From assembly GCA_036170035.1 (NCBI GenBank), contig JAVHOK010000047.1, forward strand, positions 1 to 33,255: a stretch of 33,255 bases of DNA, written 5' to 3'. Of the stretch, positions 827 to 33,255 are shown one piece after another. Numbering within the stretch: the first letter of the stretch is position 1; each line of letters begins with the position of its first letter. This DNA is from Minisyncoccota bacterium. Lineage in GTDB: Bacteria > Patescibacteriota > Minisyncoccia > UBA6257 > JAGOQP01. The notes beneath the pieces are model-generated. The model was given only the letters and a program-made list of their open reading frames with translations. It was not told the DNA's origin and did no database searches. The position numbers and the translations under genes are program-made.

Positions 827-854
827 GAGCGTCTATGATAGACGCTCTTTCTTT
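827..854 (+). terminator. intrinsic terminator
   Basis: GAGCGTCTA-tga-TAGACGCTC forms a 9-bp stem, followed by TTTCTTT. Confidence 0.75.
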
Positions 855-3134: not shown

Positions 3135-4055
3135 ATGTTTGGTAAAAAAATAATATTATTTATATCAATTGCACTGCTCCTTGTTTTAGGGGCGGTGTTT
3201 GCATTTGCTTATGAAAATCCCGGGAAGCCAACTAATTATGTAACTGATTTTGCAGGAGTATTAAACAATGAACAAATAAATTTACTTAGTTTAAAACTTA
3301 GAGAGTATCAAGAAAAAACAACTAATCAGGTTTTTGTAGTTGTAATAAAATCTTTGGATGGTGATTATATTGAAAATTATGCTGTTAATCTTTTTAAAGA
3401 TTGGGGGATTGGTCAAAAAGGAATTGATAATGGTGTTTTGTTACTTTTGGCAATGGATGAAAAAGAAATGAGAATAGAAGTTGGATATGGTCTAGAACCG
3501 TATTTAATTGATTCTCAGGCGGGAACAATTATTAGAGAAAACATAGCCCCTTATTTTAAAGATGGTAAATATTATGAAGGAATTAATGCTGGTGTAGATA
3601 AAATTATTTCTAAAATTGGGGAAACGCCTTTTAATCTTGATGAATCAAATAAATTAAGAGAAACAACAAGAGGAAAGTTTAATATTTTTGATTTAATTTT
3701 TTTCTTTCCGTTTGTTTTTATTATTTTAGTTAGAATACTAGGGAAAACTAAATCGTGGTGGTTGGGAGGAGTTTTAGGAGGAGTGATTGGAGTGATTTTT
3801 GGTTTAGTAAAAGCCTCTTTAATTATAGGAGCTATTTCTTCGGCTGTTTTTATTGGATTTGGACTTATTTTTGATTATTTATTATCTAGAGCCGGAGAAA
3901 GTGCTAGAAGTAAAGGGGATAAACCATGGTGGGATAAAAATAATCATAATGGAGGTGGAGGATTTTTTGGAGGAGGATTTGGTGGGGGAAGTGGTGGTTT
4001 TGGTGGAGGCGGGGGAGGATTTTCTGGTGGAGGAGGGTCAAGTGGAAGATGGTAG
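3135..4055 (+). CDS. TPM-domain (YgcG-like) membrane protein with Gly-rich C-terminus
   Basis: Signal/TM segment, then a TPM-like core (VTDFAGVL...Q.VVV...L.G..IE.YA..LF..WGIG....DNGVLLL.A....MRIEVGYGLE), TM helices and a GGGFGGG tail. It sits immediately after lemA, the classic pairing. Confidence 0.8.
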   Translation: MFGKKIILFISIALLLVLGAVFAFAYENPGKPTNYVTDFAGVLNNEQINLLSLKLREYQEKTTNQVFVVVIKSLDGDYIENYAVNLFKDWGIGQKGIDNGVLLLLAMDEKEMRIEVGYGLEPYLIDSQAGTIIRENIAPYFKDGKYYEGINAGVDKIISKIGETPFNLDESNKLRETTRGKFNIFDLIFFFPFVFIILVRILGKTKSWWLGGVLGGVIGVIFGLVKASLIIGAISSAVFIGFGLIFDYLLSRAGESARSKGDKPWWDKNNHNGGGGFFGGGFGGGSGGFGGGGGGFSGGGGSSGRW

Positions 4056-4059
4056 AGTC

Positions 4060-4094
4060 AACTAACAGCTAACGACTAACTACTTACAACAAAG
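4060..4094 (+). repeat. heptamer array copy A: AACTAAC AGCTAAC GACTAAC TACTTAC + AACAAAG
   Basis: Read directly from the sequence. Begins 4 nt after the TAG stop at 4053-4055. Confidence 0.8.
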
Positions 4095-4946: not shown

Positions 4947-5126
4947 ATGGATAAATTTTGTAAGACATGTGGCGGGTCAGTAGATGGATATAAATGTATT
5001 AACTGTGACGCAGAATTTGAATCTATAAAAGAAGATCATTCTTGTGGGGTGGATGGGTTTTATCTTAAATGTGAAGGTTGTGGACAGGTGGAGACAGAAT
5101 GTTCTTGTGTGGATGAAAATGAATAG
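4947..5126 (+). CDS. untracked small Cys-rich protein (59 aa), probable zinc-ribbon/metal-binding
   Basis: My translation: MDKFCKTCGGSVDGYKCINCDAEFESIKEDHSCGVDGFYLKCEGCGQVETECSCVDENE*. It has three CxxC pairs plus CxC. Start context is tatttATGg like neighbouring genes, and a hairpin follows. Confidence 0.5.
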   Translation: MDKFCKTCGGSVDGYKCINCDAEFESIKEDHSCGVDGFYLKCEGCGQVETECSCVDENE

Positions 5127-8169: not shown

Positions 8170-9522
8170 ATGAAAAAAATACTCAAGAAGAAAATCGCCA
8201 AAAAACAGGCAAAACGGGCAAAAAGAAATCATAAGGCCATAAAAAAGAACAAACCGAAGGTAAAGAAAATAAAGAAGGTGGCTAAAAAAATTCTTATTAA
8301 AAAAAAGAAGAAAGTTGTAAAAAAGGCTAAAAAAATAAAAAAAAATAAAAAAACTTCTAAAAAAGGAGTAGTTAAATCTGGAAAGAAAAAAGATATCAAA
8401 AACGACAACCTTAGAAAACCACCAGTGGCCATAGAGTTACCCAAAATAAATTCTAAATTTTTTGATCAGTCACAAATTGAGGAGTTAATAGAGAGGGGAA
8501 AATCAAGAGGTTTTGTAACTGATTCTGAGATTATTTCTGTTTTTCCTCAAATTGAAAAAGATATAGAGGTTTTAGAACAAGTTTATACTTATTTAGATGC
8601 TAGTAATATTAAAGTAATTGAAGTTGGACAATTAATAGAAACGGAAGTTAATGAGGTCTCTCAAAAAGAAATTGATCGTTTAGATACAAGTGATTTACCC
8701 GATGCGGTTCAACTCTACCTTAAATCTATTGGAAGAACAGCTCTTTTAAGTGGACAAGAAGAAAAAGATCTAGCCAAAAGGGCAGAAAAAAATGACGAAG
8801 AAGCAAGGCATAAATTAATACAAGCAAACTTAAGATTGGTAGTTTCTATTGCTAAGCATTATGTAAATAGAAGTGTTAATTTGAGTATTTTGGATTTAAT
8901 ACAAGAAGGAAACATTGGACTTTCTCGTGCTGTGGATAAATTTGATTATAGAAAAGGATTTAAATTTTCTACTTATGCGACCTGGTGGATTAGACAGGCG
9001 ATTACTAGAGCTTTAGCTGATCAATCAAGAACAATTCGTATTCCAGTCCATATGGTAGAAACAATTTCAAAATATACCCAAGTTAAAAGAAGATTGGCTC
9101 AAGAATTAGGAAGAGATCCTTTAGCGGAAGAAATTGCGATTGAAATGAATATTGGAGTTGATAAAATTAGACACATTCAAGAAATCTCACAAGAAGTGCT
9201 TTCTTTGGAATCACCCGTGGGAGATGATGATGAGAGTTCTACTTTGTCAGAGTTTATTAAAGATGAAAAGGGAATGACTCCAGATCAGATGACTTCGCAT
9301 ACTCTTTTACATGAAAAAATTGTTGAAATTATGGAAGATTTAGCACCAAGAGAAAGAGAGATTATTTCGATGCGTTTTGGTTTGATAGATGGAGTGCCTC
9401 ATACTTTGGAAGATGTTGGAAAGAGATTCGGAGTAACTCGTGAGCGCATTAGACAAATTGAAGCTAAGGCCTTGGAGAAAATGAAAGATCATGAGAAATC
9501 AAAAGCATTGGAAGAATACTAA
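8170..9522 (+). CDS. rpoD: RNA polymerase sigma-70 family primary sigma factor with poly-Lys N-terminus
   Basis: Region 2 ([37 protein letters not shown]), IRIPVHM, and region 4 ([19 protein letters not shown]). Located directly after dnaG. Confidence 0.9.
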
Positions 9523-9524
9523 AT

Positions 9525-9558
9525 GACTAACAACTTACGACTAACGACCCACAACAAG
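9525..9558 (+). repeat. heptamer array copy B: GACTAAC AACTTAC GACTAAC GACCCAC + AACAAG
   Basis: Read directly from the sequence. Begins 2 nt after the rpoD TAA. Confidence 0.8.
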
Positions 9559-9567
9559 AAATATTTT

Positions 9568-9596
9568 TTGCATTTTATTTCAAAAAAGTATAGTAT
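9568..9596 (+). promoter_or_regulatory. candidate alaS promoter TTGCAT-17-TAGTAT overlapping the terminator hairpin
   Basis: TTGCAT at 9568-9573, 17-nt spacer, TAGTAT at 9591-9596. Confidence 0.3.
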
Positions 9597-9617
9597 ATGA
9601 CTATACTTTTTTGTTTT
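9582..9617 (+). terminator. intrinsic (bidirectional-looking) terminator after rpoD
   Basis: AAAAAAGTATAGT-atatg-ACTATACTTTTTT forms a perfect 13-bp stem, followed by GTTTT. Confidence 0.7.
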
Positions 9618-14156: not shown

Positions 14157-14177
14157 AACTTATTGCTAATTACTATT
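14157..14177 (+). repeat. decayed heptamer array copy D: AACTTAT TGCTAAT TACTATT
   Basis: Period-7 CT register matches copies A-C, with C-to-T changes at the unit ends. Begins 14 nt after the TGA stop at 14140-14142. Confidence 0.35.
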
Positions 14178-19123: not shown

Positions 19124-19139
19124 ATTTAAACAAATAAAA

Positions 19140-19168
19140 ATTACCCCTGATATTCGGGGTAATTTTTT
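19140..19168 (+). terminator. intrinsic terminator immediately after rpsJ
   Basis: ATTACCCC-tgatattc-GGGGTAAT followed by TTTTT. Confidence 0.8.
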
Positions 19169-28233: not shown

Positions 28234-29505
28234 ATGTCAAAAATACTTCAACTATTTAAAATTAAAGACTTAAGGATTAAAATTTTTATTGTTCTTTTTT
28301 GGTTGGTTATTTTTAGATTATTGGCGGCTATTCCTATTCCAGATGTTGATATAGTTCGTTTAAAAAATTTGTTTTCTTCTAACCAACTACTTGGTTTTTT
28401 GAATATTTTTTCTGGGGGAGGTCTTTCTAATTTATCTATTGTTATGCTTGGAGTAGGACCTTATATTACCGCTACTATCATAATGCAACTTTTGACGATG
28501 ATTTTCCCTAATCTAAAAAAGTTATATTACGAAGAGGGTGCGATTGGAAGAGCTAAATTCAATAGAATTTCTAAATACTTAACGGTTCCACTTTCTTTTT
28601 TACAGGCCTATGGTTTTTTGAATCTTTTGGCATCTCAAGGAGTTTTGCCTCATCTTGGGGCCTTGATGATTTTAAAAGATGCTTTAATTATTACTGGTGG
28701 ATCTATGCTAATGGTTTGGATTGGTGATGTAATTGGTGAGCAAAAAATTGGGAATGGAATTTCGTTGATAATTTTTGCAGGTATCGTTAGTGGTATTCCA
28801 ACATCTATCCAAAGATTGATATTATCTTTTGATGCTTCAACTCTTATTACATATCTTGTTTTTGCCGTTGTCGCTATTTTTGTTATTTATGGAGTGGTTT
28901 ATGTTAATGAAGGAGAAAGAAAAGTTCCGATTATGTATGCCAAAAGAGTTAGAGGAACAAAGATGTATGGAGGAGCTTCAAGTTATTTACCTTTGAAGGT
29001 TAACCAAGCTGGAGTTATTCCAATTATTTTTGCAATTTCAATTATGTTATTCCCTCAGTTTTTTGCTCAAGCATTGGCTATTTTTTCAAAAGATATTTCT
29101 ATAAAAGCAATTGGATGGGTGAATTCTTTTATGAATAATCAGATTATATATACCATCTTTTATTTCTTTTTAGTTGTTGTATTTACTTATCTTTATACCG
29201 CCATTACCTTCGATCCAAAAGAAATATCTAAAAATATGCAGAGAGCGGGAGGATTTATTTTGGGAATAAGACCAGGAGAATCAACGACGGCCTATCTTTC
29301 AAATATTATATCCAGAATCACTCTTTGGGGAGCTGTTTTCTTGGGAGCAATTGCTATTTTGCCAAACTTAACTAGGATGGTAACTGGTATTTCTATTTTG
29401 ACCATCGGAGGTACAGCGCTTCTAATTGTTGTCTCTGTAGCTTTGGAAGTTTTAAGACAAATAAATTCTCAATTAATAATGAGAGAATATGAGGGGTTTG
29501 AGTAG
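28234..29505 (+). CDS. secY: preprotein translocase subunit SecY
   Basis: Ten-TM protein with LGV.PYITA.IIMQLL, G...I.E..GNGISLIIFAGIV and PLK.N.AGVIP.IFA. Confidence 0.95.
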   Translation: MSKILQLFKIKDLRIKIFIVLFWLVIFRLLAAIPIPDVDIVRLKNLFSSNQLLGFLNIFSGGGLSNLSIVMLGVGPYITATIIMQLLTMIFPNLKKLYYEEGAIGRAKFNRISKYLTVPLSFLQAYGFLNLLASQGVLPHLGALMILKDALIITGGSMLMVWIGDVIGEQKIGNGISLIIFAGIVSGIPTSIQRLILSFDASTLITYLVFAVVAIFVIYGVVYVNEGERKVPIMYAKRVRGTKMYGGASSYLPLKVNQAGVIPIIFAISIMLFPQFFAQALAIFSKDISIKAIGWVNSFMNNQIIYTIFYFFLVVVFTYLYTAITFDPKEISKNMQRAGGFILGIRPGESTTAYLSNIISRITLWGAVFLGAIAILPNLTRMVTGISILTIGGTALLIVVSVALEVLRQINSQLIMREYEGFE

Positions 29506-29509
29506 AAAT

Positions 29510-29545
29510 AACTTACAACTAACTACTTACGACCAACAACAAAAG
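29510..29545 (+). repeat. heptamer array copy C: AACTTAC AACTAAC TACTTAC GACCAAC + AACAAAAG
   Basis: Read directly from the sequence. Begins 4 nt after the secY TAG. Confidence 0.8.
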
Positions 29546-29580
29546 GGAAATAGATTCAAAATTAAGAGAAAATATCAATA

Positions 29581-29617
29581 AAAAATCATCTTTCGGCTTT
29601 GCTCAGGATGATTTTTT
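29581..29617 (+). terminator. hairpin terminator downstream of secY
   Basis: AAAAATCATC (29581-29590) pairs with GATGATTTTT (29607-29616) around a 16-nt loop; the right arm ends in a T-run. Confidence 0.5.
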
Positions 29618-29679
29618 GGTATGTATGGTAAAGTTTTTTGCACTTTAAAATAATAGCTAAATACTATATAATTTAATTA

Positions 29680-32460: not shown

Positions 32461-33213
32461 ATGAAAAACAATGCAGTTATTAATTCGCCCGTTTATTTAT
32501 CAGTAATTGTTCCAGCTTACAACGAAGCTAAAAGAATATCTTTAACATTAATAGACATAGACAAACATTTGTCAGGAGCGTCATTTTCTTATGAGATTAT
32601 TGTTGTGGACAATCGTTCATCTGATAATACTAAAGAAGTAATAAGTAGATTTGTTCCAATAATAAAGAATCTTAAAATGATTGAATGTAAGGTAAGGGGA
32701 AAGGGAGCGGCGGTAAAAAAGGGTATGTTAGAAGCCGTTGGACAAATAAGATTATTTACCGATGCTGATAACTCAACATCAATAGATCATTTTATGAAAA
32801 TGAAGCATTATTTTGATGAGGGCTATGATGTCGTGATTGCTTCTAGAGATCTTCCCGGTTCAATTATGGAGCCCCCACAGCCTGCCTATAAAAGATTATT
32901 AGGGGATATGGGAAATTTGTTTATACAATTTATGCTTCTTAGTGGGATTAAAGATACTCAATGTGGTTTTAAGGCTTTTACTGATAAGTCAGCAATTAAA
33001 GTATTTCCTTTGTCTGATATTGTTGGTTGGGCTTTTGATATTGAAATATTGTCTTTAGCTAAAGAGAATGGATATAAAATAAAAGAGATTCCCGTTAGAT
33101 GGGTAAATAATCCTTTTTCTCATGTTAAAATAACTGCTTATTTAGAAGTTTTGTTGGAGGTTATAAGAATAAAATTCAGAATGATTACTGGATATTATAA
33201 AAAGAATAGATAG
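32461..33213 (+). CDS. family 2 glycosyltransferase (polyprenyl-phosphate sugar transferase-like)
   Basis: LSVIVPAYNEAKRI, DN.S.D.T, TDADNS and QCGFKAF motifs. Confidence 0.8.
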   Translation: MKNNAVINSPVYLSVIVPAYNEAKRISLTLIDIDKHLSGASFSYEIIVVDNRSSDNTKEVISRFVPIIKNLKMIECKVRGKGAAVKKGMLEAVGQIRLFTDADNSTSIDHFMKMKHYFDEGYDVVIASRDLPGSIMEPPQPAYKRLLGDMGNLFIQFMLLSGIKDTQCGFKAFTDKSAIKVFPLSDIVGWAFDIEILSLAKENGYKIKEIPVRWVNNPFSHVKITAYLEVLLEVIRIKFRMITGYYKKNR

Positions 33214-33216
33214 AAG

Positions 33217-33255
33217 GTAAAAAGTATTAAGTAGAAAGTAAAAAGTGACAGACAA
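33217..33255 (+). repeat. purine-type heptamer array E: GTAAAAA GTATTAA GTAGAAA GTAAAAA GTGACAG + ACAA (runs to window end)
   Basis: Read directly from the sequence. Begins 3 nt after the TAG stop at 33211-33213. Confidence 0.65.

Follow-up and report, generated by a model that had tools for sequence, protein, structure and literature searches.

The stretch of DNA examined here, referred to as the window, comprises 33,255 nucleotides (nt) of contig JAVHOK010000047.1 from a Minisyncoccota bacterium (assembly GCA_036170035.1) and has a G+C content of 31%. The organism was placed by its SecY and RpoD proteins in the Paceibacterota, which belong to the Candidate Phyla Radiation (CPR)/Patescibacteria. 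Three genes of the window, coding for a TPM-domain protein, the sigma-70 factor RpoD and SecY, are each followed by a short A/C-rich tract of 7-nt units (heptads), and these tracts are referred to as copies A, B and C (Table 1).

Three heptad tracts behind stop codons

Copy A follows TAG-AGTC and reads AACTAAC AGCTAAC GACTAAC TACTTAC AACAAAG. Copy B, after TAA-AT, reads GACTAAC AACTTAC GACTAAC GACCCAC AACAAGA, and copy C, after TAG-AAAT, reads AACTTAC AACTAAC TACTTAC GACCAAC AACAAAA, its first unit being fused to a second in-frame TAA two codons past the TAG. The sequences and their forward-strand placement were exactly those reported in the initial annotation. The shared architecture of the copies is RACTWAC x4 + AACAA over 33 nt, and the consensus of the module is (T)RACTWAC x4 + AACAA, approximately 33 nt. 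With four units and a cap, each copy qualifies as a heptanucleotide tandem repeat, for which at least three head-to-tail 7-nt units are taken. Pairwise identity between the copies is 26–27 of 33 positions (79–82%), and the distance from the tract to the next start codon is 95 nt for copy A, 65 nt for copy B and 135 nt for copy C.

A search of the whole window on both strands with the full 32-nt degenerate pattern gave three matches, all on the forward strand, compared to none in 100 dinucleotide-preserving shuffles. The description of the tracts as a genuine dispersed, strand-specific, unstructured and stop-anchored A/C-rich family was upheld. A two-unit pattern gave nine matches where 1.5 were expected, and eight of the nine were inside copies A, B and C. 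Tandem Repeats Finder (TRF) called a period of 7 with 4.6 copies at positions 4059–4090, in copy A. An identical copy C is present in 10 independent assemblies and an identical copy B in 6 of them; copy A was found in 2, with one single-nucleotide polymorphism (AGCTAAC to AACTAAC, by which the odd unit is made regular). Because the copies recur across independent assemblies they are not assembly artefacts, and the number of units is constant in all of these assemblies.

The forward strand has a strong skew of G over C (19% compared to 12%). Against this background the tracts contain 26–31% C and 3–11% G, equivalent to 9–11 C and 1–3 G per 33 nt, and the excess of C stops at the edge of the 33-nt tract. 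The tracts are unpaired in the predicted minimum-free-energy folds, and ATG, GTG and TTG are all absent from the three copies. The base counts and predicted folds are in agreement with the earlier view that the tracts lack self-complementarity, are enriched in C and are poor in G. Their composition of almost only A and C would account for the lack of self-pairing and of start codons, and would leave copies B and C single-stranded ahead of the terminators that follow them.

It had been suggested that the arrays replace hairpin terminators at the ends of transcription units. Copies B and C each have their own intrinsic terminator downstream and the arrays therefore do not stand in for terminators; no recognisable intrinsic terminator was found downstream of copy A. 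The two operon ends that are without a heptad array each have an intrinsic terminator of bidirectional appearance, the stem being flanked on both sides by A and T tracts (window positions 827–847 and 19136–19167).

A complementary G/T-rich arm was not found anywhere in the window, the sole near-match on the minus strand being inside a gene, and a hairpin reading of the copies is therefore inapplicable locally. Searches against Rfam at its gathering threshold, which covered the window together with 12 related loci, returned tRNA and rRNA only; with the cut-off relaxed to E <= 10, the sole match around copy A was a chance snoRNA. No interspaced repeat array was detected by TRF or by a repeat search of the window. 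CRISPR and TIGR-type guide arrays were ruled out, as the units are contiguous and there is one 33-nt tract per locus.

Table 1. Heptad tracts, other candidate arrays and terminators of the window.
Feature	Position	Strand	Context
Copy A	4060..4094	+	TPM_phosphatase gene 3135-4055, 4 nt past its TAG (4053-4055); not followed by a terminator hairpin
Copy B	9525..9559	+	2 nt past TAA (9520-9522) of the sigma-70 (rpoD) gene 8170-9522
Intrinsic terminator	9581..9613	+	14-bp stem and U tract, 21 nt downstream of copy B; ordinary sequence, not heptads
Doubtful decayed copy, AACTTAT TGCTAAT TACTATT	14157..14177	+	period-7 signal 0.55
Copy C	29510..29544	+	4 nt past TAG (29503-29505) of secY 28234-29505
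Likely intrinsic terminator	29580..29619 (approx.)	+	hairpin and U tract, AAAAAATCATC...GATGATTTTTT, 35 nt past copy C, before the adk promoter
Period-7 array of another unit family (GTAAAAA x ~4.3, ending in ...CAGACAA)	33217..33251	+	3 nt past the stop of the GT2 gene 32461-33213; called by TRF

Two further arrays had been listed with copies A, B and C. The purine-type array at the end of the window is real by TRF but belongs to a different unit family, whereas membership of the supposed decayed copy at 14157–14177 is doubtful: the spacer around it can be aligned with the sister lineage, where the homologous stretch is G/T-rich and contains no A/C array. A hidden hairpin at this position was also rejected, as the fold was no better than that of shuffled sequences (z = +0.98). 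Purine-type period-7 arrays directly past stops were seen at window 33217–33251 (GTAAAAA), L129:11280-11305 (GAATGTG) and L203:8758-8800 (AGTAAAA), the prefix L denoting loci of the comparison set.

Among the neighbouring features, a long Gly-rich tail encoded at 3853–4052 (GGGFFGGGFGGGSGGFGGGGGGFSGGGGSSGRW) forms the end of the TPM-domain protein. An open reading frame (ORF) of 59 residues at 4947–5126, between a DNA-alkylation-repair gene and alr, is rich in CxxC motifs (CKTCGG...CINCD...CEGCG...CSC), and a gene of the same size is called at that position in the sister lineage and in other assemblies. The minus strand carries very few features, among them a tRNA-Ser(GGA) gene at positions 1–88, at the window edge.

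Heptad modules in relatives and other CPR genomes

The secY junction was compared in relatives at 74–82% SecY identity, and the TPM and rpoD junctions in the sister lineage. An array of the copy C type was not conserved behind secY in five relatives. The spacer between secY and adk is just 3–9 nt in L131 and L132, while L129 has a GAATGTG x3.7 array followed by a terminator, and L203 has heptads of the AGTAAAA type, also followed by a terminator. Copies A and B are absent from the sister lineage, in which RpoD is 95% identical and the gene order is the same. Directly past the TPM and rpoD stops this lineage has instead an A/T-rich repeat of approximately 70 nt (L207:5369-5440 and L208:2047-2116), which opens with AAAnTTn heptads (AAATTTT AAAGTTT AAAATCC AAAATTG AAAATTA) and has a promoter-like TATAAAT region at its other end. 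This repeat was not found in the window, and its two copies differ by exactly one 7-nt unit. Heptads are thus present past the same stops but belong to another family, so that the position persists while the sequence family is replaced over a short evolutionary distance.

The sister lineage also has an extra gene of 332 codons between rpoD and alaS (L207:5541-6539), which the window lacks and which consists largely of eight tandem repeats of 75 nt (25 residues). Sister contigs (L212, equivalent to ENA ERZ27293400 k141_487108, L208 and L209) end within or just past secY and approximately 200–370 nt past rpoD, which would be explained by repeat-induced assembly breaks at dispersed-repeat junctions.

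A strict version of the pattern, for which we estimate about 0.1 chance matches in 596 Gb, was found in at least 118 stretches of species-representative genomes. A version excluding longer arrays was found in 69 stretches of JGI metagenomes, and there were no pattern matches among 2.9 million viral contigs. The motif is thus present outside the window, in relatives and in many other CPR genomes. The matches fall into two groups. The first consists of long near-perfect (CTAACAA)n arrays in cyanobacteria, Bacteroidota and a few others, often just upstream of starts, and is the known heptamer-repeat phenomenon (PMC4679880; bioRxiv 10.1101/2022.06.06.494920). The second consists of imperfect four-unit arrays, rich in CTTAC and CTAAC and with R at the first position, and is found in CPR bacteria: Saccharibacteria, Moran-, Yanofsky-, Lipton-, Sungii- and Berkelbacteria and Parcubacteria. 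In a literature search of limited coverage no paper was found on heptad repeats in CPR bacteria or on the units CTAACAA and CTTACAA.

The CPR loci, 246 kb in total, were scanned with TRF and arrays of at least 2.8 copies were counted, giving a period of 7 for 62 of approximately 104 tandem arrays. When a unit-agnostic in-house detector was run on the motif-ascertained CPR loci it returned 59 arrays of period 7, compared to 1–10 for each of the periods 5, 6, 8, 9 and 10. The lengths of the period-7 arrays peak at 4.0–4.5 units, with 34 of the 59 in this range and no more than 3 at 5 units or above. Several unit families were identified, often as adjacent inverted pairs: AACTWAC/GTTGTAA, GGAATTA/TAATTCA, AAATTCG/TTTCGGA, GTAAAAA and GAATGTG. 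One genome can contain more than one of them, with RACTWAC and GTAAAAA in the window and four families in L129, a relative in which CTGAC units also occur.

In many CPR genomes the A/C arm is part of a larger structure. Four-unit arrays of the CTTAC type have a complementary G/T-rich arm within 130 nt downstream in 17 of 46 cases and upstream in 2, while for CTAAC-only arrays, which are mostly cyanobacterial, the partner arm is downstream in 1 and upstream in 7. Paired arms fold to long interrupted hairpins that are significantly better than those of shuffled sequences (z = -3.3 to -5.9). Solo arrays such as those of the window make up approximately 60% of CPR-type arrays.

Where the gene context is clear, the A/C arm begins 0–6 nt past a stop codon (the three window copies, L129, L013, L040, L073, L077 and L069), and the G/T arm of the paired form lies directly against either the following start or a convergent stop. 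In 31 of 88 arrays the first CTWAC is immediately preceded by TAA or TGA. Across all phyla, stop adjacency was only weakly biased under crude ORF calling (16 sense compared to 11 antisense), and a clear anchoring to stops was confined to CPR loci whose gene context is good. A crude detector placed a downstream terminator behind only 4 of 29 solo arrays, a yield that did not exceed the antisense control, and the order of stop, array and terminator is therefore not a general architecture.

Heptad arrays are also found inside genes. Many CTTAC-unit members lack a sense-strand stop, and their in-frame translation gives peptides of the type N-LQLTTYNLQQ in arginyl-tRNA synthetase (ArgRS; L077, L088), a valyl-tRNA synthetase-like protein (L089), HemK (L024) and TsaD (L114). 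The ArgRS segment from PMEIA to xPGYIN is 21 residues long both in most homologues and in the array-bearing protein, and the array is therefore not a net insertion. At the identical 11 ArgRS codons three lineages have different variants: (AACTTAC)x4 + AACAA in one Moranbacteria lineage (L077:1022-1054), (AAATTAC)x4 + AAACT in another (L205:3180-3211), and a decayed period-7 sequence in a third (L206). The units of the array have all changed together, which points to copying at the DNA level in a 7-nt register. In other homologues this variable segment of the N-terminal domain of ArgRS contains insertions of up to 59 residues that look repeat-derived (e.g. ...CHSERSEESL...).

Heptads were also identified in ribosomal RNA. 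The 23S rRNA gene of the metagenome-assembled genome 'bacterium HSP1.bin6' (L106:7100-8000, minus strand) contains two heptad hairpins of approximately 70–90 nt, which cmscan aligned as insertions of 88 nt and more than 70 nt. They are extensions of helix tips, with the arms GACUGAC GACCAAC GACUUAC ... / ...GUUGUUAGUUGUUAGUCGUAAG.

Comparison with known repeat families

The initial annotation could not match the tracts to any described repeat family. This holds for REP, BIME, ERIC, CRISPR and attC and for the Rfam families, but overlooks the heptanucleotide tandem repeats of bacteria (PMC4679880; bioRxiv 10.1101/2022.06.06.494920). According to the summary in PMC4679880 of Mrazek et al. (2007), heptanucleotide repeats are the most abundant class of long simple-sequence repeats (SSRs) in most prokaryotic genomes, and polymerase slippage is given as their source. 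Long SSRs with 7-nt units (PMC4679880; PMC4692102) resemble the CPR arrays in their head-to-tail 7-nt units, mostly intergenic location and predominance of period 7, and in signs of copying in a 7-nt register (one-unit indel and concerted change). The CPR form differs in the sharp peak at approximately 4–4.5 units, in its imperfect units, in showing no unit-number polymorphism between samples, in the anchoring to stops and the fixed AACAA cap, and in the frequent pairing with a complementary arm. The open-ended length of long SSRs was not seen, the arrays peaking at 4.0–4.5 units.

The STRR heptamers of cyanobacteria are a related repeat class. Direct repeats of TAACTGA have been described from Beggiatoaceae, cyanobacteria and Bacteroidetes (MacGregor 2015, PMC4679880), and heptamer repeats are located upstream of recF/recO in Nostoc (bioRxiv 10.1101/2022.06.06.494920). 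All of these are similar to the window copies in forming short sets of 2–6 A-rich heptamers in untranslated regions (UTRs), and the pattern scan matched many cyanobacteria and Bacteroidota. The TAACTGA unit is itself related (AACTGAT compared to AACTAAC), and a reader protein for it is only postulated. One obvious difference is that these repeats lie mainly just upstream of starts, often as long perfect arrays, while the window copies are located past stops, with four imperfect units each and with the next start at a distance of 65–135 nt. The order of the hairpin arms at the cyanobacterial-type loci is also opposite to that in CPR bacteria. Membership of the TAACTGA repeats was rejected for the window copies, which have the unit RACTWAC and do not lie within a few nt upstream of a start.

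Short dispersed repeats are also represented by the REP, BIME and REPIN elements of proteobacteria and by the Rickettsia palindromic elements. The former are similarly found past stops at operon ends, often as inverted hairpin pairs, and the latter similarly have in-frame copies in protein genes and copies in RNA genes. Compared to REP and REPIN elements, the window copies have no dyad symmetry, their arms are internally 7-nt periodic, the copies are only approximately 80% alike, and no RAYT-type gene is known for the tracts. Membership of the REP/BIME/REPIN group was rejected for the window copies on the palindrome criterion, given the unpaired folds and the lack of a complementary arm in the window. 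The CPR form is set apart from the known heptamer repeats by its fixed size, imperfect units, stop anchor, A/C-first hairpins and copies in rRNA and proteins.

Proposed origin and possible roles of the modules

Modules of 7-nt units, approximately 4–4.5 units long and of several unit families, are Patescibacteria-wide. Arrays change with all of their units in concert, or else by one unit exactly, and loci are replaced between close relatives. The copies sit where a G-poor tract is tolerable, that is, past stops, at 23S helix tips and in variable surface segments of proteins. The interpretation we favour, with a probability of slightly below one half (about 0.45), is that the tracts are slippage-type heptanucleotide modules arising at the DNA level at permissive sites, and that the window contains them as solo A/C arms in unstructured 3'-UTR spacers.

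Copying of DNA in a 7-nt register would both give rise to such modules and homogenise them; slipped-strand mispairing, template switching and ectopic conversion are candidate processes for it, and a dedicated sequence-specific reader would not be required. In relatives, the one-unit indel of the sister repeat and the concerted change from AACTTAC to AAATTAC at one ArgRS site may reflect slippage-type dynamics; among the assemblies of the window organism the number of units does not vary. In the TPM, rpoD and secY transcripts, copies A, B and C would make up roughly the opening 35 nt of the 3' UTR, and tracts of only A and C may survive because they neither pair, nor start translation, nor disturb neighbouring signals. 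They would represent the solo form of the arrangement of A/C arm, loop and G/U arm found in many CPR genomes, in which the paired hairpin would fill the spacer from stop to start or from stop to stop and could plausibly act as a terminator, a stabiliser or a processing site. The A/C-first order may allow the long hairpin to zip up co-transcriptionally without competing structures, which would suit a terminator or stabiliser. In the window the likely role is that of a passive, structure-free spacer or insulator, or none.

Several observations weigh against this interpretation. Plain slippage predicts a geometric distribution of lengths and polymorphism in unit number, but the lengths peak at approximately 4–4.5 units and no unit-number polymorphism was found among the independent assemblies (10 for copy C, 6 for copy B and 2 for copy A). 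The units within a copy differ only at the R and W positions, which looks like constraint. A gap of 0–6 nt to the stop is far commoner than free placement in a spacer of 100–170 nt allows, and roughly half of the copies have a T immediately ahead of their first RA, giving TAA or TGA. The order of the arms (17 compared to 2 in CPR bacteria, 1 compared to 7 at cyanobacterial-type loci) is suggestive of RNA-level selection. At the same two junctions each of the two sister genomes has a unit family of its own, a pattern that could equally result from a trans-acting reader co-evolving with its sites or from a master-copy mechanism. The favoured interpretation does not account for the sharp peak in size, the absence of unit-number polymorphism, the anchoring to stops, the order of the arms or the genome-specific families at shared junctions, and for this reason a protein-binding platform and a mobile element are kept as alternatives.

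As a platform, the tracts would offer periodic sites, in the 3' UTR or in single-stranded DNA, to a nucleic-acid-binding protein that is oligomeric or has several domains, with one heptad per protomer or domain; candidates are cold-shock-domain, KH or S1-domain proteins, which would control mRNA decay, termination or ribosome release. We consider this unlikely, although much about the tracts would suit a binding site: the fixed four units and conserved cap, the restriction of variation to the R and W positions, the single-stranded state in predicted folds, the anchoring to stops and the occurrence of one consensus across Saccharibacteria, Moran-, Yanofsky-, Lipton-, Berkel- and Paceibacteria. 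The use of one family at two junctions in each sister genome is as expected if site and reader co-evolve, and S1, Csp or CsrA-type readers were proposed by MacGregor for the TAACTGA repeats (PMC4679880). Unrelated heptad units at orthologous junctions of close relatives weaken the explanation. Several families are also present within one genome (two in the window, four in L129), the copies in coding regions and 23S rRNA would make no sense for a 3'-UTR reader, and no candidate protein has been identified.

A further explanation, to which we give a similarly low weight, is that of a self-renewing 7-nt-periodic Patescibacteria module of approximately 31–33 nt, with a genome-specific unit and a dedicated copying mechanism or a co-evolving reader. 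As part of it, a master template or an enzyme of the reverse transcriptase, primase or integrase type would copy the module to stop-proximal sites. If this were true, self-renewing modules would also build the intergenic A/C–G/U hairpins and seed rRNA expansion segments and protein loop insertions in reduced genomes.

Mobility in trans is quite unlikely. In this case the module would be a miniature non-autonomous element, REP/REPIN- or MITE-like, that targets TAA/TGA-proximal sites, with the window copies as half-elements. The discrete size of the dispersed copies, the inverted-arm forms common in CPR bacteria (17 of 46) and the presence or absence of copies between sister lineages are consistent with this, as are the breaks of sister-lineage contigs near array junctions. 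Copies in protein loops and rRNA recall the Rickettsia palindromic elements, and the ArgRS segment is a hot spot that holds other repeat-derived peptides. However, within-genome copies are only approximately 80% identical and share neither flanks nor loop, no target-site duplication is evident, and the ArgRS copy adds no net length, the concerted unit change at this fixed site being a better fit to copying in situ than to re-insertion. There is also no transposase near the tracts in the window, no RAYT (IS200/IS605-like) gene within the 33 kb, and no match to the pattern in the viral contigs.

The YC dinucleotide is the unit bound by the primary site of Rho. The tracts had been proposed as rut-like loading sites for factor-dependent termination by Rho, and they resemble rut sites in the excess of C over G, in the unstructured RNA and in the position directly past the translated region, with copy A having no recognisable intrinsic terminator. 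This proposal fared poorly and is very unlikely. A tract of 33 nt is too short compared to a rut site, which has multiple YC over approximately 60–80 nt, and YC is not enriched, with counts of 0, 2 and 1 in copies A, B and C where 2 are expected from the background. Strong intrinsic terminators follow two of the three copies at 21–35 nt, purine-type heptads occupy the equivalent position in relatives, and related arrays are abundant in cyanobacteria, which to our knowledge lack Rho.

Least probable of all is a back-up stop cassette catching read-through or frameshifted ribosomes in all frames: a period of 7 does move the TAA by one frame per unit, copy A does close three frames within 21 nt as had been claimed, copy C does have its second in-frame TAA, and the GTAAAAA and TGTGA families carry a stop in each unit, but copy B closes only two frames and copy C one, CTTAC-only members without a sense-strand stop are translated inside genes, and about half of random heptamers would contain a stop at 31% G+C, as estimated from base frequencies. 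Primase initiation sites (CTA/TTA on the lagging-strand template), DNA uptake sequences, heptad operators of the omega-type ribbon-helix-helix kind and a ring-shaped binder like HutP or TRAP were also considered as readings of the tracts and were set aside.

A large part of bacterial diversity falls to the CPR/Patescibacteria, in which transcript ends and the evolution of the compact spacers are almost uncharted. For annotation, in-frame peptides of the 'LQLTTYN' type and rRNA inserts in CPR bins can be repeat-derived. If the modules prove to be genome-wide, one type of 7-nt-periodic module would account for much of the intergenic DNA and many of the inter-gene hairpins, and for some of the insertions in 23S rRNA and essential proteins. 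It would then give a handle on how small genomes generate new non-coding structure, on whether a reader or copying machinery exists, and on why heptanucleotide repeats are favoured in bacteria, a puzzle since 2007.

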